Positions 41,901 to 60,751 of a stretch of DNA of 64,000 nucleotides are shown piece by piece (within the stretch, counting starts at the first letter, position 1; each line of letters starts with the position of its first letter). A program made the translations under genes and the position numbers. The notes below the pieces were generated by a model. That model made no database searches and was not told the DNA's origin. It was given only the letters and a program-made list of their open reading frames with translations. The stretch spans positions 4,772 to 68,771 of the forward strand of contig JAFGBF010000002.1 in the NCBI GenBank assembly GCA_016933255.1. The letters are read 5' to 3'. Source of the DNA: Candidatus Krumholzibacteriota bacterium (GTDB lineage: Bacteria > Krumholzibacteriota > Krumholzibacteriia > Krumholzibacteriales > Krumholzibacteriaceae).

Positions 41901-43164
41901 TCCCTCGGCGCTTTCTCTTTTTTCTGCGGTTGTAGCTCGAAACCAGCTCCATGAATATTCCAAGATCGTTTTCAAGATCCATACGGTTTGAGTCGAAGTA
42001 GAACGGGCGGATCGGGATGTCGTCATGATCGCGGCTTACGCGCGGATAGACCGACTCTGATACTATTCCATTCATGCATGTGAACGGGCTTATATCGATT
42101 ATTCCATCGGCCCCGTTCTCGTACATATAGATACTCTTTCCTACGCTGAGCACCATCTCGCCGAGGGCTCCGTGCCAGGGAAGGTATGGCTCTGCAAGAT
42201 CGAGTATTTCTCTTATCTTCCCCGGTTCTTTCATAGGCGCGAGGGAGCCTTTCAGCGGTTCAAGAAGTTTGTGTTCCAGCCTTTTCTGGAAAAATTTCTT
42301 CAGCTGAACGCCGGCCATTGAAGCTGATATGCCGTTGCCCCTTATCTTCAGGTTCTTCACCTGTTCCTCATCGGTGTACCATATCCATTCGGTAATATCG
42401 GAAAGCCAGGCCGTAGCCCCGAAACGCTCCAGTCTGCGTATCAGATCATCGTTGCTGAAAGTGTTAAGACGGCAGAATATTTCGCCGACGACACCTACAA
42501 GCATCGTTTCTTTCTCCGTATCGACAGGAACAGCGCGGAAGATATCCCTCGCGGCCTCCATCGTGCCGGTCAGGCGGCGTGATACCGAGTTCTTCCGGAG
42601 AGGACCGTTTTCAAGTTCGTCGCAGAATATTCCAAGCGCCTCACGATGCGCGGCGTCCGCGGCCCCCTCTTCCGTCTCACGGGGACGATGCGTATGGAGC
42701 ATCTTGCGCAGCGCGTCGCTTCCGACAAGGGCGAGCCAGCCAAGCTGCATAAGAGGAGCGGCATATCTTCCTATCCCGTCGTATCCGTTCTTACTTGTGG
42801 GAGAGAAGACCATCAGCGATTCGTACCCCATATCGTCGAGTATCTGGCGGAGAAAGGGCGCGTACTGCCCGAACCTGCAGGGGCCTCCTGCCGTAGGCAT
42901 GAGAAACGCCGTCTTTGAAGGGTCAAACCCCGGCGATTCGATGACCCTGAGAAAATTCCCCACCGTCACCCTCTCGGGCAGGCATTCGTCTCCCGACGTA
43001 TACCGGCCGGCCAGATCGAATGTCCTTTCGTTTCCCTCGGGGACGACTTTGGCGTCTATCCCGAAGTGCCGAAACGCTGCTGCAAAAGCTTCGGCTCCTC
43101 CTGAGGACATTCTGGGAATGTAGAGGGTCCTGTCTTCGAGAGACCAGCTTCTTTCTTCCACCAC
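41887..43164 (-). CDS. DUF2229-like protein associated with CoA-substrate-specific enzyme activase (C-terminal portion of a normally fused protein)
   Basis: It is the last gene of the activase operon and overlaps the 3' end of the upstream gene by 55-109 nt in another frame. No catalytic motif is recognised. Combined length with the upstream protein is about 1450 aa, matching single-polypeptide homologues. Confidence 0.45.
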   Translation of the reverse strand: MVEERSWSLEDRTLYIPRMSSGGAEAFAAAFRHFGIDAKVVPEGNERTFDLAGRYTSGDECLPERVTVGNFLRVIESPGFDPSKTAFLMPTAGGPCRFGQYAPFLRQILDDMGYESLMVFSPTSKNGYDGIGRYAAPLMQLGWLALVGSDALRKMLHTHRPRETEEGAADAAHREALGIFCDELENGPLRKNSVSRRLTGTMEAARDIFRAVPVDTEKETMLVGVVGEIFCRLNTFSNDDLIRRLERFGATAWLSDITEWIWYTDEEQVKNLKIRGNGISASMAGVQLKKFFQKRLEHKLLEPLKGSLAPMKEPGKIREILDLAEPYLPWHGALGEMVLSVGKSIYMYENGADGIIDISPFTCMNGIVSESVYPRVSRDHDDIPIRPFYFDSNRMDLENDLGIFMELVSSYNRRKKRKRRGIRAA

Positions 43165-46100
43165 CTGAGTACTCCCTTGCTGTCGAGATAAGCTTCACAT
43201 CTTGTCATCATGCCGGCGTCGTTTCCGTGGGCATCGAACTGCAGCGCGAGCCACGGACGCGACGACGCCCTGTTGCAGAAATGTTTTACATATGAATCGG
43301 GGCCGCATTTGAAATTGGTTATGTAGATCAGATGCAGGTTCTCTCTTTCAGAGGCGAATTTCGCCGCCTGCAGTATCTTTCTGCCGTAATTCCAGAACAT
43401 GTTCTGTCCCTCCTCCTCGATATCGATCCCGTCCAGGGGAAGGAAGAAGAGAGGGATGACATTCGCCCCGTAATAATCCCTCAGCTTGCCCGGCACATCC
43501 ATGTTGATTTCCCGGTCCATCAGATTATACGGTCTTCCAACCAGGATTATCCCCGGCTGATTCTTTTCGTCGAGCGCCGCCAGGGCTTTTTGCCCGCAAG
43601 CCTGGAGCTCACCCTGAAAAAGCCGCTGAGCGGCGTATGCCGCCCTGACCGCCAGTCTGCTCCGCCGCCTGCTCCTGCCGTATCTTTTAGCGAACCGCCA
43701 CAGCTCTTTTTCTACAAATTTTTCTCCCTCCCTGAAATGGACTATGGGAGAAGCTATGATCCCCTCCCTGCCTTCCAGCGCCGGCATGCTCCGGATGACG
43801 AAAGGCAGAGTCTGCCCCCAGGGACAAATATATGATCCGGTCTCCTCATGATCAGTCTCGGCATCTATGATATTGGGGATGAAGATCAGATCGGGGTCCT
43901 CTTCAAGCAGCCGGACGACGTGTCCATGCGCCACCTGGACCGGCGCGCAGGGCTCGGCGACCGAACCTTCGATACCCCTGTTGACGATCTCCCTGTTCGT
44001 CTCAGGAGTCGTCACCAGCTCCATTCCGAGAGCACTCAGAAATGTGCTCCAGAATGGGTATGTATCGAAGTAGAACATCGCAGACGGGATCCCTGCCGTG
44101 ATCCTTTTTCCGCCAGGCGGAGGAGCCGTGTCTATTTTTATTCCCAGCTCTTCTTCGACCAGCGGGATCGTATCCCTTTCAAGAAGGTTCATATATACTT
44201 TCATAAGATCGGGAACGGCCGGCTTAAGATGGGCCCTTGCCCTTTTGTGGTATCTTTCTCCGCACTTGTCGCCCCAGTATGTCTTGCGGCCGGCTACGGT
44301 GAACTCCTGAATATCACAGAAATTCGTGCAGCCGCTGCACGGAAATTCGCGGATACTGTATTCTACTTTCGATATATCCAGCCCGCGGAACGAACTGACG
44401 GTTCCGAGAGCAGTCATTTTTTCTTTCGCAAGCAGGGCGGCGCCGATAGCCCCCATCACTCCGTTATATGGAGGAACGATTATCTCCTTTTCGAGTATCT
44501 GGCTGAAAGCGGCGGCTACCGAGTCATTGTACGCTGTCCCGCCCTGAAAAAAGACGACGTCGCCGATCTTTCTGCCGCGCACGATCCTGTTCAGATAGTT
44601 CTGCACTACCGAACAGGCAAGCCCCGCCACCAGATCGGATTTGCCGGCTCCCATCTTCTGGTATGACGAGAGGTCGCGTTCCATATAGACGGTGCATCGT
44701 TCTCCCATCCGCAAGGGGGCCTTTGAAGCAAAAGCCTCTCTGGAGAATTCATCGATAATATTAATGTCAAGTTTCGAGGCCTGCTCCTCGAGGAATGATC
44801 CGGTCCCGGCCGCGCAAGCCTCGTTCATCGTGAAATCGACGACTATCCCGTCATCGATCGAAATATATTTGGAATCCTGGCCGCCGATCTCGAATATCGT
44901 ATCGACTTTTTTACCAAGCAGCCTTTCTCCGATGAACAGAGCTCCGGTCTTGTGCGCCGTGATCTCGTCATTGACAGTATCGGCTCCGACCAGTTCGCCT
45001 ATAAGTTCGCGTCCCGATCCGGTGGCCCCGACTCCCTTTATCCTGACCCTGTCCCGGGTCCTTTCAGAAAGGATCCGAAGGCCCTCTCCGACGACATCGA
45101 TCGGCCTTGCCTGCGTTCTGAGATATATCTCCTCTATGACCGATCCGTCTCCGGTTATAAGGGCGAGGTTGGTGCTTACCGAACCGATATCCAGTCCGAG
45201 GTATGCGTCTATCGGAATATCCGGTTCACCAATCGAATACGTATCCACGCGGTCGCGCAGAAAACTCACCTTCTCTTTTGACAAACGGTCCCAGGACGGG
45301 AATTCCTCTCTTTCGGAGATATTTTTTTCAGCGACCTTTTCGGCAAGAAGCGCCGTATCTGAATCTTCACAGCTGGCGCGCGATGCTACGATCGCCGATC
45401 CTATAGCTTCAATATAGGCGCACAGGTCGGGGACGAAAAAATCATCGGCGCTGAGCCCGAAGACCTTTCTTACAGATTCAGCGACGCCTCTGTTCATCGC
45501 CACACCGCCGATAAAGGCGGTCCTGCCGGTGATCTTTCTCCCTTTGGTAATATTACTCTTGAAGTTTCTTGCGACCGCTTCGCACAGCCCTTTGAGCACT
45601 TCTGCGGGCTGATACCCTTTCTGCTGCGCGTGTATCATATCGGATTTTGCGAAAACACTGCACCTGCCGGCGATCTTCGGAGAACGCATCGTATATGATA
45701 CGATCTCCCCCACATCCTCGATGCCGTAACAGAGGCGGCTCGCCTGCTGATCCATGAACGAACCGGTTCCCGCCGCGCAGTCTCCGTTAGTCTCATATTC
45801 GATTATAGAGGTATTGCCGTTTTCGCTTGCGATCCTGATATATTTCGAGTTTTCTCCGCCCATCTCGAAAATATTGACGATATCCGGATATAATCCGCCT
45901 ATACTCGCCGCGGCAGCCTTGAACTCGTTTTCGACAGGGATCCCCAGCGCCTCCGACACGAGTCTGGCGGAAGCTCCGGTCACCACGGCTGACCGTATCT
46001 CGGCGGGGCTGATATTCTGATACAGTTCCCGCAGCGAGCGGATGACGGTATCGAGAGGGTCGCCCTGGACTCTCATATACCGCGAGACAGCTATAGATCG

Positions 46101-46253
46101 ACCCGGGTCGTTTCGGTAAGGATAAACGCCTGTTATAAGGCCGTTTCCTTCTTTTTCCAGAAGCTTCAGGCGCTCTGTCTGGCCGAGCAGGGCCCATCTT
46201 GCGCTTACTGTACCTGTATCTATACCGAGCGATAAACCCATGACACCTTTCAA
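43056..46253 (-). CDS. CoA-substrate-specific enzyme activase: two BadF/BadG/BcrA/BcrD-type ATPase domains fused to a 2-hydroxyacyl-CoA dehydratase (HgdB/HadC)-like domain
   Basis: Two ASKHA-type ATPase modules are present (LGIDTGTVSARWAL...; LGLDIGSVSTNLALI...), with conserved Cys for the bridging [4Fe-4S]. The C-terminal region carries the dehydratase-component motif (GIILVGRPYNLMDREIN). Confidence 0.7.
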   Translation of the reverse strand: MKGVMGLSLGIDTGTVSARWALLGQTERLKLLEKEGNGLITGVYPYRNDPGRSIAVSRYMRVQGDPLDTVIRSLRELYQNISPAEIRSAVVTGASARLVSEALGIPVENEFKAAAASIGGLYPDIVNIFEMGGENSKYIRIASENGNTSIIEYETNGDCAAGTGSFMDQQASRLCYGIEDVGEIVSYTMRSPKIAGRCSVFAKSDMIHAQQKGYQPAEVLKGLCEAVARNFKSNITKGRKITGRTAFIGGVAMNRGVAESVRKVFGLSADDFFVPDLCAYIEAIGSAIVASRASCEDSDTALLAEKVAEKNISEREEFPSWDRLSKEKVSFLRDRVDTYSIGEPDIPIDAYLGLDIGSVSTNLALITGDGSVIEEIYLRTQARPIDVVGEGLRILSERTRDRVRIKGVGATGSGRELIGELVGADTVNDEITAHKTGALFIGERLLGKKVDTIFEIGGQDSKYISIDDGIVVDFTMNEACAAGTGSFLEEQASKLDINIIDEFSREAFASKAPLRMGERCTVYMERDLSSYQKMGAGKSDLVAGLACSVVQNYLNRIVRGRKIGDVVFFQGGTAYNDSVAAAFSQILEKEIIVPPYNGVMGAIGAALLAKEKMTALGTVSSFRGLDISKVEYSIREFPCSGCTNFCDIQEFTVAGRKTYWGDKCGERYHKRARAHLKPAVPDLMKVYMNLLERDTIPLVEEELGIKIDTAPPPGGKRITAGIPSAMFYFDTYPFWSTFLSALGMELVTTPETNREIVNRGIEGSVAEPCAPVQVAHGHVVRLLEEDPDLIFIPNIIDAETDHEETGSYICPWGQTLPFVIRSMPALEGREGIIASPIVHFREGEKFVEKELWRFAKRYGRSRRRSRLAVRAAYAAQRLFQGELQACGQKALAALDEKNQPGIILVGRPYNLMDREINMDVPGKLRDYYGANVIPLFFLPLDGIDIEEEGQNMFWNYGRKILQAAKFASERENLHLIYITNFKCGPDSYVKHFCNRASSRPWLALQFDAHGNDAGMMTRCEAYLDSKGVLRWWKKEAGLSKTGPSTFPECPQEEPKLLQQRFGTSG

Positions 46254-54241: not shown

Positions 54242-54757
54242 CTAATGGACGATCTTTGCGGAAGTGGCAACATCTCCATAGACGTAAAGGGCATATGGAA
54301 GAAGCTCTTCCTTGCTTCTGATCGCGTATTCCTGGACTGTCGGACCGCTGAAACGGATATCGATGCTGTTGCTGGCGAAAAATTCCCAGCCAGCCTGGTT
54401 TACCGATGTCGCTCCTCCGATATAATCGAAATCGGCCACGACTTTGCCCCCGTAAAACTGGAGCCATATCGTGTTCAATGTCGGGGGGAATTCATTTTCC
54501 ATGGCGAAATAGGAAAATAGAGCGGTCTGGACGTTTTTAATATTCTGCACTGTGACCGCGACCTGGGCAGCTTTCTTGGAGCGATAAAAGTTTGATATGA
54601 CTATAGTTGCGAGGAATCCAATGATCTCCACGACAATAAACAGCTCGAGGAGGGTGAATCCGGCGATCCCGATCCTGCCGAGAAGAGACCTTTTCTTTCT
54701 TCTTCCTCTTGCTCCGATTGCAAGAATACCTGTTAAATAGCGGAAAAATCGCAACAT
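54242..54757 (-). CDS. Type IV pilin / pseudopilin-like protein (prepilin N-terminal methylation motif)
   Basis: The sequence is …RRKKRSLLGRIGIAG|FTLLELFIVVEIIGFLATIVI. This is a class III leader with a conserved Glu+5. The leader is unusually long in the only open frame. Confidence 0.55.
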   Translation of the reverse strand: MLRFFRYLTGILAIGARGRRKKRSLLGRIGIAGFTLLELFIVVEIIGFLATIVISNFYRSKKAAQVAVTVQNIKNVQTALFSYFAMENEFPPTLNTIWLQFYGGKVVADFDYIGGATSVNQAGWEFFASNSIDIRFSGPTVQEYAIRSKEELLPYALYVYGDVATSAKIVH

Positions 54758-55374: not shown

Positions 55375-56286
55375 ATGGGCAGTCACAGCGGTCACGATCA
55401 TCACAGCTACGGGATCGAAGCCGGCAGAAGAATCACTATCGCCAGCATAGCCATCAATGCCATCCTGATAACGCTCAAGATCTTCGGAGGCATTTTCGGG
55501 CGGAGCCGCGCCCTTCTCGCAGACGGCATCCATTCCATATCCGATTTTATCTCCGATTTCGTAGTCCTCGTCGGCCTTCATTTCCTGAGAAAAGAAAGTG
55601 ACGAAGATCACCCGTACGGTCACGGAAAAATAGAAAGCGTCTCCACTCTATTTGTAGGGACGATCCTTCTCCTGGCGGCTTTCAGGATCGGCGTGGAAGC
55701 TGCGACTGCGATCTATAAGGGCGATATATCGATCCCCGGCAGATTTACCATAATAATAGCCGCTCTTTCTGTCATCTCCAAAGAGACGATGTACCACCTG
55801 ACCGTCAGGGTCGGAAAAAAGGCGGGAAGCGAGGCGATGATAGCCAATGCGTGGCACCACCGCTCCGACGCCATATCTTCGATCATAACGCTTGCCGGCA
55901 TATCTCTTGCCGTTTTTAACCCTTCTTTAAGGGTCCTTGATTCATACGCCGCCCTTCTGGTTTCATTCTTTATTATAAAGGTCGCCTTCGATATCCTGAA
56001 ACCCGCCATAAACAAGATCATCGACACATCGCCATCAAAAGAACTAATTACTGAAATATTCGAAATCGTATGCGATGTTCCCGGAGTGATCGAATGCCAC
56101 GACCTGATGGCCAGATATTACGCGGACAGGATCAGGATGGAGATCCATATTCAGGTCGACCCGCAGATGACAGTGATCGATTCGCACCGGATCGTCGACG
56201 ATGTGGTGGGGAGGATCACAGAAAAACATCCCGAAATAGAAAAAGTGCTCGTACATGTGGATCCGCATAGAGAAAGGCAGCAGTGA
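55375..56286 (+). CDS. Cation diffusion facilitator family transporter
   Basis: It has a His-rich N-terminus (GSHSGHDHHSYG) and 6 TM helices, with conserved motifs (ADGIHSISDFIS) and (HVDPH) in the cytoplasmic domain. Confidence 0.8.
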   Translation: MGSHSGHDHHSYGIEAGRRITIASIAINAILITLKIFGGIFGRSRALLADGIHSISDFISDFVVLVGLHFLRKESDEDHPYGHGKIESVSTLFVGTILLLAAFRIGVEAATAIYKGDISIPGRFTIIIAALSVISKETMYHLTVRVGKKAGSEAMIANAWHHRSDAISSIITLAGISLAVFNPSLRVLDSYAALLVSFFIIKVAFDILKPAINKIIDTSPSKELITEIFEIVCDVPGVIECHDLMARYYADRIRMEIHIQVDPQMTVIDSHRIVDDVVGRITEKHPEIEKVLVHVDPHRERQQ

Positions 56287-57416
56287 AAAAAATAGAGTTT
56301 TTCAGACATGGTATCGGAGATGAAGAGATCGAACGTGTCGGCGGTGTGCTTAGATCGCTTTTCCTTACTACAGGAAACGAAGTTGCGGAGTTCGAGGAGA
56401 CCCTTGCCGGTTATCTCGGCCTGCCGGAAACGGTCGCCGTCACGAGCTGCACGGCGGCGATGCAGCTTGCTCTCCTCGCTGAGGGGATAGGCCCGGGAGA
56501 CGAAGTGATCACAACTCCCCTTACTTTCATAGGATCGGTCAACGCTATCCTGATGACCGGTGCCACGCCGGTCCTTGCGGATGTCGACCGCTCGACAGGA
56601 AATATAGACCCTGCCGCCGTTGCCGGGGCAGTCACCCCCCGTACGCGGGCGATACTCCCCGTCCACCTGTACGGCCAGATGTGCGATATGGAAGCTCTCC
56701 GCCAAATTGCCGACAGCAATGGTCTTTTCATCGTCGAAGACGCTGCCCATACCCTTGAAGGCGAGTGGAACGGGAAAAGACCGGGGCATTACGGCGACTA
56801 CGCCTGTTTTAGTTTCTATGCGACAAAGAATGTGACTTCGGGGGAGGGAGGGGCGATATCGCTAAAAGACCAGGGTAAGTGCGACCTGCTCAAACAGCTT
56901 CGTCTGCACGGCTTCGACAGAAACGCGATGGAGCGATATACCGATCATTTCGAGCAGTACGATGTCCGGATCCTCGGCTGGAAATACAACATGGATAATA
57001 TCCACGCCGCGATCCTGAATGAACAGATGAAGAAACTTTCTTCGATGCTCAAGAGGCGAAAAGAGATATACAGGATATATCTCGACGCGTTTTCAGGGAT
57101 CGAAGGGATAGAACTTCACGATATCAGGCCCGAAGCCCGGCATGCCTGCCATATCCTCACTCTTCTTGTCGACCCGGAGAAACGCGATACCGTCATGTCT
57201 GAGATGCAGAACAGGGGTATCGGGATGTCGATCAACTTCCATCCCGTTCACCTCATGACCTACTACAGGGAGAGATTCGGTTACAAAAAAGGTGATTTCC
57301 CCGCAGCAGAGGAGATCGGCTCGAGGACGCTAACCATACCCTTCTACCCTAAACTGACCGCCGAAGAGATCGAATATGTGATCGAGAATCTTATCGATAT
57401 CGTCAGATCTTCCTGA
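56283..57416 (+). CDS. DegT/DnrJ/EryC1/StrS-family PLP-dependent sugar aminotransferase
   Basis: The PLP Lys motif is FYATKNVTSGEGGAI. The GTG start overlaps the CDF stop (GTGA). Confidence 0.85.
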   Translation: MKKIEFFRHGIGDEEIERVGGVLRSLFLTTGNEVAEFEETLAGYLGLPETVAVTSCTAAMQLALLAEGIGPGDEVITTPLTFIGSVNAILMTGATPVLADVDRSTGNIDPAAVAGAVTPRTRAILPVHLYGQMCDMEALRQIADSNGLFIVEDAAHTLEGEWNGKRPGHYGDYACFSFYATKNVTSGEGGAISLKDQGKCDLLKQLRLHGFDRNAMERYTDHFEQYDVRILGWKYNMDNIHAAILNEQMKKLSSMLKRRKEIYRIYLDAFSGIEGIELHDIRPEARHACHILTLLVDPEKRDTVMSEMQNRGIGMSINFHPVHLMTYYRERFGYKKGDFPAAEEIGSRTLTIPFYPKLTAEEIEYVIENLIDIVRSS

Positions 57417-57633
57417 AAAGGCGAAATTCGGATCGATGCGGCTTTTTCCACTTCGCCCCCCCCGGGTTCCGAAAAAAGTTCCGTTTGACTTTTCTTTTCG
57501 ACAGTGTTATTTTTTTCACATGTTAAGCTTTTCTCACAAACTGGGGCCGCAGGCAGAATTGCCAAGCGGCTGCCTGATTCGCTGTTTCAAATGGGCGCGT
57601 TAAAAATTTTGACGCCCTGGAAGGAGTTCCAGA

Positions 57634-59607
57634 ATGAATAAGTCTCTCTTGTCCTTTGTTTCCGCAATCCTTATCACGGTTGTGGCCTTCCCGGTCCTGG
57701 CAGGCGATATCCACAATGCCATTCAAAGCAGCGACGCCGCCAGAGTGAAAGAGATCCTGAAGAACAATCCGGAAAAGGTCAACGAACGGGCAGATAATCA
57801 GTTTGATGAGCTTCCGATACATACCGCCGCGACAACGGGCAACGTGGATATCGCCCGGATCCTTATAGAAGCAGGCGCCGCAGTCGATGCCGGCGACAGC
57901 GATAACAGCACCGCCCTTGATATCGCGGCGATGCGCAGGCACGCCGAAATGGTCACCTTTCTGCTCGAACAGGGAGCAAACGTCAACCATCGGGACCGCA
58001 AGGGCGACACTCCGATCAGTTTTGCCTCGTACCGCGGCAATGAAGAAGTGATTCGGCTTCTGCTCGACGCCGGCGCGGACCTTTATTATCGAAGGCCGGA
58101 CGGAGAGACTCTGATGCATTTTGCCTGCGGCAGAAACCTGCCCTTTCTTGTCGAACATATCCTGGAAAACGGGACCGACCTCGAGACGCGGGCATCAAAC
58201 GGAGGAACGCCTCTGGCTTATGCCGCAGGATCCGGAAATGCCGAGATAGTCAGGATGTTGCTTGAAAAAGGCGCTTCTCCCAATCCCCCCGTAAAAGAGG
58301 GAGGGATTACCCCCCTTATTTTCAGTGCATGGCGCGACGCGGTGGAATGCGCCCGTCTTCTCCTTGAAAAAGGCGCTGATATCAGCGTGAGGTCAAACTC
58401 GGGCAGAACGATCCTGATGGACGCGACCTCACAGTCCTCTGTCGAGATGATCAGACTGCTACTCGAGCATGGCGCCAATGTCAACCTGGCCGATGAAGAC
58501 GGCCAGACAGCTCTGGTAATCGCCGTGGAAAATGGAAAAACGGAACATGTCGCCGCGCTGCTCGAAGCTGGCGCAAAGCCGGATCTCGGAACCGACAAGA
58601 GTGGAAGGACCGCTCTGCAGCTCGCATCGATCAGGGGCTACAGGGAGATCGCGGACAGGCTCATTACAGCTGGAGCAGGCTCATCTGACAGCGGAAAATG
58701 CGGTACGCCGCCGATTCTCTTCGCTGAATATTATGGAAACGACGAAGTTGCCAGTCTCTTAAAATCAAAGGGAGTCTCTGGAAAAGGCAAAAAAACCGAC
58801 CGGTCTCTCGCCGCAACAGGCAACCTCGGTAAGAAAGAGGCAGCGATCTATTTTCTGGGTCACAGCGGCTGGGCCGTCAAGACACGCAACCACCTTCTCA
58901 TTATTGACTATTATAAACAGGGCGGCGATCCGGATCGAAAGGGCCTGTGCAACGGGACTATAAACACCGCGGAACTCGCGGGGAACAAGGTGACAGTCTT
59001 TGCTTCCCATTTCCACGGCGACCACTATGATCCCTGCATCTTCGAATGGAAGGATGAGGTGGAGGATATAACTTACTTCCTTGGTCTGCAGCCGAGAGAC
59101 AGCGTTCCTCCATACGAGTTCATGGAAGAGCGTGTGTCAAAGGATTTTGGGGATATCAAACTCACTACCATACATTCCACAGACGCAGGAGTAGGAATGC
59201 TTATCGAAGTGGACGGCCTTACTATATTCCACGCCGGCGACCACGCAAACGGCCGTATCGGCCTGATGGACGAGTTCACGGACGAGATCGTTTTTCTCAA
59301 AGAAAACTGTCCGCGTCCGGATATCTGCTTCATGGGAATCAGGGGATGCAGCCTCGGCACGCCGGAGCAGGTCAAAGAAGGTGTAGAGTATACCCTTGAA
59401 AAACTCAGCCCCAGAGTATTTATCCCGATGCATGCCCGGGCAGATGGAGAGATATACAGGGAATTCATTGATGAAATAAGCGGCAAGTTCAAGAATGTCC
59501 AGATGGCAGCGCCCGGTAACCGGGGTGATCATTTCATATACAGGAACGGAAAGATCATCGACCCGAGGCCTTTCACTCCGGGCCTTGTTTCAGCTGCGAT
59601 CAAATAA
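57634..59607 (+). CDS. Secreted ankyrin-repeat protein fused to a C-terminal metallo-beta-lactamase-fold domain
   Basis: It has a signal peptide and about 10 ANK repeats (G.TPL..A...G......LL..GA..N). The C-terminal 230 aa carry an HxHxDH-type metal motif (FASHFHGDHYD) and a downstream HAGDH. Confidence 0.7.
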   Translation: MNKSLLSFVSAILITVVAFPVLAGDIHNAIQSSDAARVKEILKNNPEKVNERADNQFDELPIHTAATTGNVDIARILIEAGAAVDAGDSDNSTALDIAAMRRHAEMVTFLLEQGANVNHRDRKGDTPISFASYRGNEEVIRLLLDAGADLYYRRPDGETLMHFACGRNLPFLVEHILENGTDLETRASNGGTPLAYAAGSGNAEIVRMLLEKGASPNPPVKEGGITPLIFSAWRDAVECARLLLEKGADISVRSNSGRTILMDATSQSSVEMIRLLLEHGANVNLADEDGQTALVIAVENGKTEHVAALLEAGAKPDLGTDKSGRTALQLASIRGYREIADRLITAGAGSSDSGKCGTPPILFAEYYGNDEVASLLKSKGVSGKGKKTDRSLAATGNLGKKEAAIYFLGHSGWAVKTRNHLLIIDYYKQGGDPDRKGLCNGTINTAELAGNKVTVFASHFHGDHYDPCIFEWKDEVEDITYFLGLQPRDSVPPYEFMEERVSKDFGDIKLTTIHSTDAGVGMLIEVDGLTIFHAGDHANGRIGLMDEFTDEIVFLKENCPRPDICFMGIRGCSLGTPEQVKEGVEYTLEKLSPRVFIPMHARADGEIYREFIDEISGKFKNVQMAAPGNRGDHFIYRNGKIIDPRPFTPGLVSAAIK

Positions 59608-59647: not shown

Positions 59648-60751
59648 TCAGACCAGTCTCGCTATATGGGCGTCCAGCAATCGCCCGACGATCCTTTTTT
59701 CGGTGAATTCCCCGGCGCGTTCAAATGCGCGCGCCGCGATCGAATCGTAAAACTCCCTGTCTCCGGCCAGCCGTGCCATCGCCTTTCCTATCTCTTCGGG
59801 AGACTTAACGGGGACAAGGATGCCTGTCCGCCCATCTTCGACCAGTTCGGGAATCGATTTCCAGCGGGTGGCGATCACGGGGACTCCCGCGGCGAACGCC
59901 TGGAGTATCACCGCCGGATGCCCCTCTCCCTCATGATAGGTGGGAAGAAGAAGGAAATCGTATTCGCTTAACCTTCCTATTACTTCATCGGGCTGAAGTC
60001 TGCCGCCGTATCGGCAATTGGTATTCGCCTCCAGTGATCTGTCAAACGGCTCTTTGTCGCGGGGAAGGATATCGCCGAAGAAATCTACGCGGACCTTTGC
60101 CTCGTTTCCAACCGCTTCTATTATATCGAATACTCCCTTTTCTCTCTTGATCTGTCCGATGAAAATACCTCTGCCGGAAAAACTCCCGGACGGCATCCTG
60201 TCCGGTATCATCGAGTCGGGAATGAAGTTTGGAAATCTGGCGATGCGGCTTCGGTCGATCTGAAGCCCGTCGATAAGATCCGATTCCAGCGCCGCGGTCT
60301 GGGGAAGAATAAGATCCGCTTTCCTTATCATCTTGATGACGATATTCCGCCTTAACCCCCGAAGCGTTTTCAGCTTATCGACGAAAAAGGAACCGAAGCT
60401 CTTTATGACGAATGGCTTGCCGGTCAATATGCAGATGCCGATAAGCGGAATCCCTATTGAACAGACGAAGGAACTGTTCACCCAGAAAAGCACGGCCCTC
60501 GCTCTGAATACTTTTCCTGTGAAGGAAAAGAATATTCTGAAAGCCCTGAGAATATCGCCGGGGGGGCGGCTGGAATTATGGACCCTGATGAATCCGCGAG
60601 AGGATGTATCGATCATATCCAGGGTGATCCCCGCCTTGGACCAGTAAACGCTTTTAAACAGATTGTATGTGGAGACCGTATCTCCACCGATCGGGGGAGG
60701 GAGCGGGCCTGTCAGAAGTACCCGTTTCTTTTTTTCACCCTTCTTTTCCAT
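59648..60751 (-). CDS. Glycosyltransferase family 4
   Basis: The GT-B signature is EGEGHPAVILQAFAAGVPVIATRWKSIPELVEDGRTGILV. Confidence 0.75.
   Translation of the reverse strand: MEKKGEKKKRVLLTGPLPPPIGGDTVSTYNLFKSVYWSKAGITLDMIDTSSRGFIRVHNSSRPPGDILRAFRIFFSFTGKVFRARAVLFWVNSSFVCSIGIPLIGICILTGKPFVIKSFGSFFVDKLKTLRGLRRNIVIKMIRKADLILPQTAALESDLIDGLQIDRSRIARFPNFIPDSMIPDRMPSGSFSGRGIFIGQIKREKGVFDIIEAVGNEAKVRVDFFGDILPRDKEPFDRSLEANTNCRYGGRLQPDEVIGRLSEYDFLLLPTYHEGEGHPAVILQAFAAGVPVIATRWKSIPELVEDGRTGILVPVKSPEEIGKAMARLAGDREFYDSIAARAFERAGEFTEKRIVGRLLDAHIARLV

Follow-up and report, generated by a model that had tools for sequence, protein, structure and literature searches.

A gene at positions 57634..59607 (+) of a 64,000-nucleotide stretch of a Candidatus Krumholzibacteriota genome (GenBank assembly GCA_016933255.1, contig JAFGBF010000002.1; the whole stretch is referred to here as the window) encodes a protein that is probably an exported, likely periplasmic metallohydrolase of two modules, in which an ankyrin solenoid would be rigidly coupled to a metallo-beta-lactamase (MBL)-fold domain and would recognise or position its target. 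We place the probability of this reading at roughly 0.6. The open reading frame (ORF) is uninterrupted and represents a complete gene of 657 codons plus stop, corresponding to a protein of 657 amino acids. An initial annotation of this gene had described an N-terminal signal peptide, about ten ankyrin repeats and a C-terminal MBL domain carrying the motifs HFHGDHYD and HAGDH, and all of these elements were recovered, the two motifs at residues 459-466 and 533-537, respectively.

Recurrence and distribution of the ankyrin-MBL fusion

The fusion of an ankyrin array to an MBL domain is recurrent and stable and is not a product of chance or assembly, since a full-length search retrieved 330 clusters at E<=1e-60, and ankyrin repeats were present in all 66 of the 66 long representatives scanned, these having been found through the MBL domain alone. 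The search for further fusions of this type that the initial annotation had proposed was thus carried out with a clear positive outcome. The best 120 of the 330 full-length clusters displayed identities of 34-69%, nearly all over 87-100% of the query, and were mostly 640-675 residues in length. The closest matches (P0121 and P0261; 69% identity over 99% of the length) are labelled as Krumholzibacteriota or 'Bacteroidales' metagenome-assembled genomes (MAGs), and the window's own protein was absent from the searched protein collections, in which the best match was 69%. When the C-terminal domain alone was searched against a collection of 5.8 billion proteins, 163 clusters were retrieved, many with precomputed Ank domains. 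An exhaustive HMMER scan of 1.84 billion representatives with the MBL domain yielded 1415 representatives at E<=1e-3, of which 261 reached E<=1e-30, with at least 250 residues preceding the MBL domain in 119 of the top 150.

Members of the family have been deposited under generic names ('ankyrin repeat domain-containing protein' at NCBI; 'ankyrin repeat protein / UlaG (beta-lactamase superfamily)' at JGI), and similarity to the nearest characterised proteins is confined to the catalytic core (15-21% identity). Frameshifts were found to have split the homologue into two or three overlapping calls on long-read MAG contigs (L001:7250-9404, L002:7418-9188 and L003:4008-5972), hence many ankyrin-MBL entries of 350-470 residues that lack a signal peptide are interpreted as truncated calls and not as a cytoplasmic short form. 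The family can also be multi-copy, given that a single MAG (CAZSXU01; L012 and L013) carries two divergent paralogues, the MBL domains of which are 51% and 49% identical to that of the query. A second ankyrin-MBL copy was looked for in the window and none was found.

A scan of one genome per GTDB species identified the MBL domain in 174 species. The best 80 of these were all MAGs or single-cell genomes of uncultured lineages spanning more than ten phyla, with labels including Latescibacterota, Krumholzibacteriota, WOR-3, Zixibacteria, Aminicenantes/Acidobacteriota, Cloacimonadota, Bacteroidales/Prolixibacteraceae, Delongbacteria, Marinimicrobia, Phycisphaerae and Ignavibacteriales. The view that ankyrin arrays are rare in free-living bacteria and usually denote association with a host or partner, on which the initial annotation had drawn, is not supported by this family, as the 80 genomes listed from the 174 species are without exception environmental.

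This distribution bears on the possibility that the protein is a eukaryote-like effector, the ankyrin repeats of which would target a host protein upon delivery to a eukaryotic partner. Ankyrin-rich proteins are typical of symbionts and pathogens, and partial matches to the Legionella Dot/Icm Ank effectors were returned by NCBIfam; however, all of the Legionella T4SS_Ank models fell far below their cut-offs (the best, AnkY, with 138 against 600 bits) and constitute generic repeat matches. Such a role is also at odds with the taxonomic range of the family, which was found in MAGs of uncultured environmental bacteria belonging to many phyla, and with an N-terminus of the classical Sec type in a protein that has no dedicated secretion signal; full-length orthology across phyla argues instead for a housekeeping function in the envelope. 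We therefore regard an effector function as extremely improbable.

Fold and subfamily of the C-terminal domain

The MBL-fold domain spans residues 403-645 (about 245 residues; 58840..59568, +) and was delineated by Pfam, profile searches against the PDB, structural modelling and Foldseek. The Pfam family Lactamase_B_3 (PF13483) matched residues 405-600 (26.5 bits with the complete protein as query, 30.0 bits with the domain alone; cut-off 24), was the sole Pfam family matched by the domain even at E<=10, and was also matched by 69 of 70 relatives. A structure prediction, likewise among the follow-ups proposed initially, confirmed the MBL fold: the isolated domain was modelled with a mean predicted local distance difference test score (pLDDT) of 92.7 and a predicted TM-score (pTM) of 0.91. 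A Foldseek search of this model against the PDB gave 137 matches at E<=0.001, and all of the top matches listed are MBL-fold proteins, with query-normalised TM-scores (TMq) of 0.54-0.67 and identities of 10-21%. In order, these were 3BV6 (Vibrio cholerae, Fe-containing), UlaG (2WYL/2WYM), TM1162 (3X2Z), Igni18 (6HRG) and 3KL7, followed by FrsH and CmlA and then the cAMP-bound UPF0173 protein 7E3W; YhfI, PNGM-1, Pce and NAPE-PLD were among the lower matches. A search of PDB sequences with the single MBL domain sequence retrieved nothing significant, and a family profile matched TM_1162 (E 6.5e-9) and Igni18 (E 3.6e-4).

The domain thus has a true MBL fold and belongs to the Lactamase_B_3 / UPF0173 / UlaG-like clade, which settles the subfamily classification that the initial annotation had called for. 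It constitutes a compact UPF0173-like core with a UlaG/3BV6-like ligand set and is not UlaG itself. UlaG proper was rejected because the domain comprises only 245 residues and starts directly at the first beta-strand after the linker, and no ula genes are nearby. The class B beta-lactamases (B1/B2/B3), the AiiA-type acyl-homoserine lactone (AHL) lactonases and glyoxalase II were rejected on the grounds that PF00753 gave no match at E<=10, and structures of these three groups were not found among the top 50 Foldseek matches. The beta-CASP RNases (RNase J, CPSF73) were rejected in view of the lack of a Pfam match, the compact 245-residue domain without insertion and a TMq of 0.41 for CPSF3.

These results are pertinent to the proposal that the protein is secreted, targeted to a protein partner and active as a beta-lactamase, a quorum-signal (AHL) lactonase or a nuclease, in line with the substrates named in the initial annotation. 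In its favour, the domain has the MBL fold with the complete HxHxDH...D...H set of ligands, the structural neighbour Igni18 has promiscuous beta-lactamase and lactonase activity (PMC7846560), and a BlaI-type repressor together with a BlaR1-type M56 protease lies near the gene at four related loci (L004, L005, L012 and L009). Nonetheless, only Lactamase_B_3 was matched at E<=10, with no match to PF00753; the nearest structures were 3BV6, UlaG, TM1162 and Igni18, with class B beta-lactamase and AiiA structures missing from the top 50; there is no beta-CASP insertion, and the CPSF3 match reached a TM-score of only 0.41. Moreover, in place of a penicillin-binding domain, the neighbouring M56 proteins have C-terminal sensor domains of tetratricopeptide (TPR) or HEAT repeats, and the window does not carry such a gene pair. 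A dedicated function of this kind is thus judged quite improbable, although promiscuous activity of the domain towards beta-lactams, AHLs or nucleic acids is possible.

Metal-site residues

Residue conservation was measured over 355 aligned relatives, and all coordinates in this section refer to the (+) strand. According to the initial annotation, incomplete MBL motifs would have weakened the idea of an extracellular effector; the set of metal ligands proved to be conserved, with the residues of motifs 1, 2, 4 and 5 (D425, H459/H461/D463/H464, D536 and H600) retained in 99-100% of relatives. Motif 1 is represented by D425 (58906..58908; 99%), and motif 2, HxHxDH, by H459-F-H461-G-D463-H464 (59008..59025; approximately 100%). 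Motif 4 corresponds to H533-A-G-D536-H537 (59230..59244), in which the bridging D536 is conserved in 100%, H533 in 98% and the family-specific H537 in 96% of relatives, and motif 5 to H600 within a PMH sequence (59431..59433; 100%). Two further positions stand out: H410 of the LGHSGW motif (58861..58863; 93%), which appears to be the counterpart of the second-sphere His8 of TM1162 and of position 11 of Igni18 (PMC7846560), and C572 (59347..59349; 90%), a family-specific Cys in a G-C loop that reads G-G in UPF0173.

Motif 3 was assigned by alignment to the segment H514-S-T-D517 (59173..59184). H514 lies at or beside the canonical motif-3 His position, and His occurs there in only 15% of relatives, the remainder having E, R or K; D517, three residues further on, is 99% conserved and was aligned with Asp184 of UlaG in a profile alignment. 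The motif-3 His would thus appear to be replaced by an invariant Asp, as in UlaG and 3BV6. UlaG, 3BV6 and CmlA are without the fourth His and employ Asp184 or Glu377 instead, and these proteins bind Mn or Fe, not two Zn ions (PMC7846560, PMC3219644).

The same apparent substitution raises the question of whether the domain could be a non-hydrolytic di-iron or manganese redox enzyme resembling the MBL-fold beta-hydroxylases CmlA and FrsH, for which the ankyrin array would hold the substrate. A carboxylate in place of the motif-3 His is also found in the Fe-binding 3BV6 and in CmlA (PMC7846560), and both FrsH and CmlA were Foldseek matches with E values of about 1e-10 to 1e-9. CmlA, however, has Ala482 where the last His would be (PMC7846560), whereas H600 is invariant here. 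UlaG shares the same Asp yet is a hydrolase, and the matches to CmlA and FrsH cover only the shared core (target-normalised TM-score, TMt, 0.31-0.33). The hosts of the ankyrin-MBL family are mostly anaerobes, and O2-dependent hydroxylation would be unlikely for a periplasmic protein in such organisms. On balance, a redox function is considered very improbable.

Signal peptide and export

A strong Shine-Dalgarno sequence, AAGGAG (57621..57626, +), was read directly from the sequence 7 nt 5' of the ATG at 57634 and fixes that codon as the start, so that the hydrophobic N-terminus is translated. The first 23 residues (57634..57702, +) form a putative Sec-type signal peptide, as judged by inspection and by the conservation of this segment across the family. 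The N-terminus, MNKSLLSFVSAILITVVAFPVLA followed by GD after the predicted cleavage point, begins with a basic n-region that leads into a hydrophobic core, and positions -3 and -1 are occupied by V and A, respectively. Its layout is MNK, then SLLSFVSAILITVVAFP, then VLA preceding GD, with a helix-breaking Pro present, and it thereby conforms by inspection to a Sec (signal peptidase I) substrate with small residues at -3 and -1. Neither a lipobox Cys nor a twin-arginine motif was found in the query N-terminus.

Amongst 119 long representatives, 115 begin with Met and a hydrophobic segment, and only four of these are lipoprotein-like. In the 227 family members in which the N-cap motif could be located, the residue at -1 is A, G or S in 207 and that at -3 mostly A, V, L, S or T; the median implied signal-peptide length is 23 residues, and the median of the maximal 10-residue hydropathy is 2.95. 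The upstream pieces of the three frameshift-split homologues likewise open with a signal peptide, followed by the same '(G/A)EIH.A' cap. Export by the twin-arginine translocation (Tat) pathway was rejected, as the query has no RR motif and RR-like motifs occur in only 10 of the 227 relatives; a lipoprotein was also rejected, with no lipobox in the query and a lipobox-like sequence in only 4 of 115 relatives.

The whole protein is most likely exported to the periplasm. Pfam detected no type IX secretion system (T9SS) C-terminal sorting domain in the protein and the last ~15 residues are disordered in the full-length model, which leaves the periplasm as the default location in a diderm. With regard to the initial suggestion of an extracellular or periplasmic protein, the export signal is conserved and that part stands, whilst an extracellular location is less likely in view of the missing lipobox and the lack of a Pfam match to a T9SS sorting domain. 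Fast-folding designed ankyrin proteins need a co-translational route of the signal recognition particle (SRP) type to cross the membrane (PMC9594773). The highly hydrophobic signal peptide would suit SRP-type co-translational export of an ankyrin protein, should that requirement carry over to this family.

The ankyrin array and its coupling to the MBL domain

The ankyrin solenoid occupies residues 24-386 (57703..58791, +), as established by Pfam, repeat parsing, modelling and Foldseek. Pfam ankyrin matches cover residues ~25-385 (Ank_2, E 2.6e-62, 207.8 bits against a cut-off of 27.3; Ank, 192.8 bits). Repeat parsing resolved an N-cap (residues 24-54) and ten 33-residue repeats: R1-R5 at residues 55-87, 88-120, 121-153, 154-186 and 187-219, and R6-R10 at residues 221-253, 254-286, 287-319, 321-353 and 354-386. 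In the model, paired helices with a pLDDT above 90 extend throughout residues 25-378, and the ankyrin part was matched by Foldseek to ankyrin-R, AnkB and DARPins. Members of the wider family have between about 7 and 15 repeats. A linker of 16 residues (387-402; 58792..58839, +), containing a short helix at 392-395 and modelled with a pLDDT of 77-89, connects the array to the MBL domain and is the least conserved segment.

Conservation along the solenoid is uneven. In 66 full-length orthologues, the mean top-residue fraction was 0.59-0.69 for the N-cap and R1-R3, compared to 0.65 for the MBL domain, and 0.51-0.55 for R4-R10. The R2 positions S89, D90, S92 and R120, which correspond to the concave recognition surface of ankyrin proteins, are conserved in 74-95%. 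The high conservation of the N-cap, R1-R3 and these concave positions points to a conserved ligand at the N-terminal end of the solenoid, which could be either an external partner or the MBL domain itself.

The full-length model was obtained with a pLDDT of 92.1 and a pTM of 0.87. We infer from the latter that the ankyrin and MBL modules adopt a fixed relative arrangement, because a much lower value would be anticipated for two bodies with no defined orientation to each other. A Foldseek search found no solved structure with the same two-domain arrangement.

A fixed arrangement would also be compatible with an array that acts intramolecularly, i.e. that cradles, stabilises, gates or helps to metal-load, in the periplasm, an MBL domain whose substrate is a small molecule. 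The ankyrin-MBL contact implied by the pTM of 0.87 would favour this, as would the constancy of the MBL domain whilst repeat number varies from about 7 to 15. The loop at residues 430-439, beside motif 1, rose in pLDDT from 71 in the isolated domain to 93 in the full-length model, a weak indication given that the alignments behind the two models differed. A possible precedent, by analogy, is AnkB of Pseudomonas aeruginosa, a periplasmic ankyrin protein that is reported to be required for full KatB catalase activity (Howell et al. 2000, as cited in PMC12754779). Conversely, the most conserved ankyrin surface, R1-R3, is estimated from standard ankyrin geometry to lie far from the C-terminal MBL domain, and ten or more repeats far exceed the need of a stabilising cap. 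MBL-only relatives also exist, some with a signal peptide of their own (P0193 and P0230), which argues that the domain folds without ankyrin repeats. A purely intramolecular role is accordingly rated as unlikely, though it deserves serious consideration.

Proposed function

In the reading that we favour, that of an exported, two-module metallohydrolase, the MBL domain would be an active mono- or binuclear metal hydrolase, and Mn or Fe would be as plausible in the active site as Zn, since the ligand set is UlaG/3BV6-like. The bond cleaved would most probably be a phosphoester or phosphodiester, or alternatively a lactone or ester, because the characterised structural neighbours mostly cleave phosphoesters or lactones. 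NAPE-PLD, Pce and the RNase Z-like enzymes are phosphodiesterases. Phosphorylated sugars and nucleotides are substrates of UlaG-like proteins (PMC3219644), and Igni18 is promiscuous, with phosphodiesterase, lactonase, lipase and beta-lactamase activities (PMC7846560). The ankyrin array, held fixed relative to the catalytic domain, would recognise or position a conserved envelope or periplasmic target, for which the conserved concave surface of R1-R3 is the likely contact site.

A more specific version of this mechanism, which we offer tentatively and consider conceivable rather than probable, is that of a periplasmic 'clamp', in which the conserved concave face of R1-R3 captures a conserved envelope macromolecule and presents it to the Mn/Fe-type MBL site; the target could be a protein, a non-protein polymer or a lipid head group. 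If true, more than ten largely uncultured phyla would share a class of periplasmic metallohydrolases targeted to their substrate that has not been described before, and in some lineages the enzyme may be under envelope signalling of the BlaI/BlaR1 type.

Several observations weigh against the favoured reading. The hydrophobic core of the query N-terminus is long, at about 19-20 residues, so that an uncleaved signal-anchor is possible, though the body of the protein would face the periplasm with either a signal peptide or a signal-anchor. Some MBL-only relatives are without a signal peptide, hence the MBL domain can work in the cytoplasm too. Lack of conservation of the motif-3 His means that the metal site may not be the same as in the canonical binuclear Zn hydrolases. 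The predicted interdomain geometry is taken from a single model score, the pTM, and a mean-field direct-coupling analysis (DCA) of the ankyrin blocks against the MBL domain (294 sequences) gave top pairs that were repeat-register and gap-edge artefacts; amid these dominant artefacts, the best pairs between the N-terminal block and the MBL domain had z values of about 3.5 and ranked about 300. No neighbouring gene is common to the whole family across 83 related loci and the window, and there is hence no hint of a pathway from gene context. Finally, literature searches on ankyrin-MBL fusions, on periplasmic ankyrin hydrolases and on ankyrin proteins in Latescibacteria, Krumholzibacteria and Zixibacteria found no paper describing the family.

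A role in anti-phage defence was considered separately and rejected, as PADLOC returned only generic ankyrin matches and the MBL domain alone matched nothing.

Genomic context

In the window, the ankyrin-MBL gene is preceded on the same strand by a cation diffusion facilitator (CDF) efflux gene (55375-56286, +) and, directly upstream, by a gene for a DegT/DnrJ/EryC1-type sugar aminotransferase (56283-57416, +), and is followed by a convergent group-1 glycosyltransferase gene (59648-60751, -). RsgA and methyltransferase-like ORFs are further neighbours. A candidate sigma-70-like promoter, TTGACT-17-TATTTT with a TG (57485..57513, +), lies in the 218-nt gap after the DegT gene; this is a weak consensus match, with two sigma-70-like sites found compared to 1.5 expected from shuffled sequences. 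Taken together, the Shine-Dalgarno sequence, the sigma-70-like site in the upstream gap and the convergent downstream gene make the ankyrin-MBL gene look like a transcription unit of its own. The DegT-type gene and the CDF gene share 4 nt at the start of the former; a metal exporter is in this way translationally coupled to a sugar-modifying enzyme, which is unusual, and the pairing of these two genes upstream of the ankyrin-MBL gene is not conserved among relatives.

Neighbourhoods were compared by an all-vs-all BLAST of the ORFs of the 83 related loci and the window. The only window neighbours to recur beside relatives were a weak CDF match (L006) and an RsgA match (L042), both isolated. Loci labelled Aminicenantes/Acidobacteriota or uncultured (L039, L054, L062, L067, L071, L073 and L002/L049) carry an upstream ATP-binding cassette (ABC) ATPase gene followed by one for an ABC-2-like permease of ~550 residues. 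This cassette ends 107-360 nt 5' of the ankyrin-MBL gene, with SBBP or PD40 beta-propeller genes intervening in some cases, and is preceded by a GntR regulator in L073 and L002; the GntR-ABC synteny is lineage-specific. In WOR-3, a gene for a T9SS-secreted M28 peptidase adjoins the ankyrin-MBL gene. Two Krumholzibacteriia loci (L007:3972-4454 and L009:3950-4432) share a 160-residue ORF on the same strand ~400 nt upstream, the L007 copy of which matches DUF6530; no counterpart turned up in the part of the window used for the comparison (50-64 kb).

The BlaI-type repressor (Penicillinase_R) and BlaR1-type M56 membrane protease genes are positioned directly upstream on the same strand in two Latescibacterota genomes (L004:2552-4533 and L005:2677-4697), directly downstream at L012:6970-9322 and about 3.6 kb away at L009:10512-12807, and are not found in the 64-kb window. 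This hints at control of the ankyrin-MBL gene by envelope signalling in some lineages, a pattern too sparse to be given weight. At another locus, from a MAG labelled Gemmatimonadota, the gene directly upstream (L008:2554-4410) encodes a serine 'Beta-lactamase' (PF00144) domain, with weak, sub-threshold dockerin and reeler matches.

Elsewhere in the window, an ORF of 171 residues (54242-54757, -) has a prepilin-like N-terminus, GFTLLELFIVVEIIGFLATIV, and no Pfam match at E<=0.001, and may encode a divergent type II secretion or type IV pilin-like pseudopilin. Positions 18000-48000 contain a long series of minus-strand ORFs, including one of 1065 residues (43056-46253), with a persistently negative GC skew.

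Significance and comparison with known systems

Long bacterial ankyrin arrays are usually read as signs of host interaction. In the present family, which occurs in uncultured environmental bacteria, arrays of 7-15 repeats appear to form part of an enzyme and to be routinely exported to the cell envelope, with consequences for how ankyrin counts in MAG surveys are read. The family is large, conserved over its full length and has an intact, slightly unusual metal site (an Asp apparently in place of the motif-3 His, a conserved Cys and an extra His) and no characterised member, and it thus represents a well-defined target in the search for a new envelope activity and in studies on the export of fast-folding repeat proteins. 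Its importance is nonetheless moderate, in that no long-standing question depends on the family and the query gene is an ordinary member.

Of the characterised proteins, the L-ascorbate-6-phosphate lactonase UlaG of E. coli (2WYL/2WYM), together with 3BV6, gave the top Foldseek matches (E about 1e-13, TMq 0.64-0.67). UlaG and 3BV6 share with the query the HxHxDH motif, the bridging Asp, the C-terminal His and, to judge from the alignment, an Asp in place of the motif-3 His (Asp184 in UlaG, D517 here), and both UlaG and the query have a His soon after the bridging Asp. The hhalign probability for UlaG was 86%, with an alignment that spans only UlaG residues 32-283 and contains large gaps. Identity is only about 15%, and UlaG has 354 residues as opposed to a domain of 245 here, in which the N-terminal hexamerisation helices and long active-site loops of UlaG (PMC3219644) are missing. 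UlaG is, furthermore, a cytoplasmic protein of the ula operon, whereas the query is an ankyrin fusion, is predicted to be exported and lacks neighbouring ula genes.

The UPF0173 proteins (TM1162, Igni18, 3KL7 and 7E3W) were the best sequence-profile matches in the PDB, and all match Lactamase_B_3. Like the query domain, they are of compact, single-domain size and contain LGHS near the N-terminus, YHAGD, the D-(I/V)-A-(F/L)-L-P strand and PMH. They differ in being cytoplasmic and stand-alone, in keeping the motif-3 His, and in having G-G in place of G-C572 and T in place of H537, with identities of 16-21%. Their own physiological substrates are uncertain, Igni18 being promiscuous and the 7E3W entry being titled as cAMP-bound.

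Two further systems are comparable in design. Pce (CbpE) of Streptococcus pneumoniae is an extracytoplasmic MBL-fold phosphorylcholine esterase, the choline-binding repeats of which target the enzyme to its envelope substrate. The MBL core of Pce (2BIB) was a Foldseek match at rank 46, and the combination of an extracytoplasmic MBL esterase with a targeting module of tandem repeats follows the same design logic, though by analogy only: the choline-binding repeats of Pce are C-terminal, its MBL domain belongs to another subfamily and it functions at a Gram-positive surface. AnkB offers a likeness of another kind, in that a bacterial ankyrin protein of the periplasm is reported to act together with a metalloenzyme that is itself exported; it is, however, a short polypeptide in its own right, encoded beside katB, whereas in the present family ten or more repeats are covalently fused to the MBL domain.

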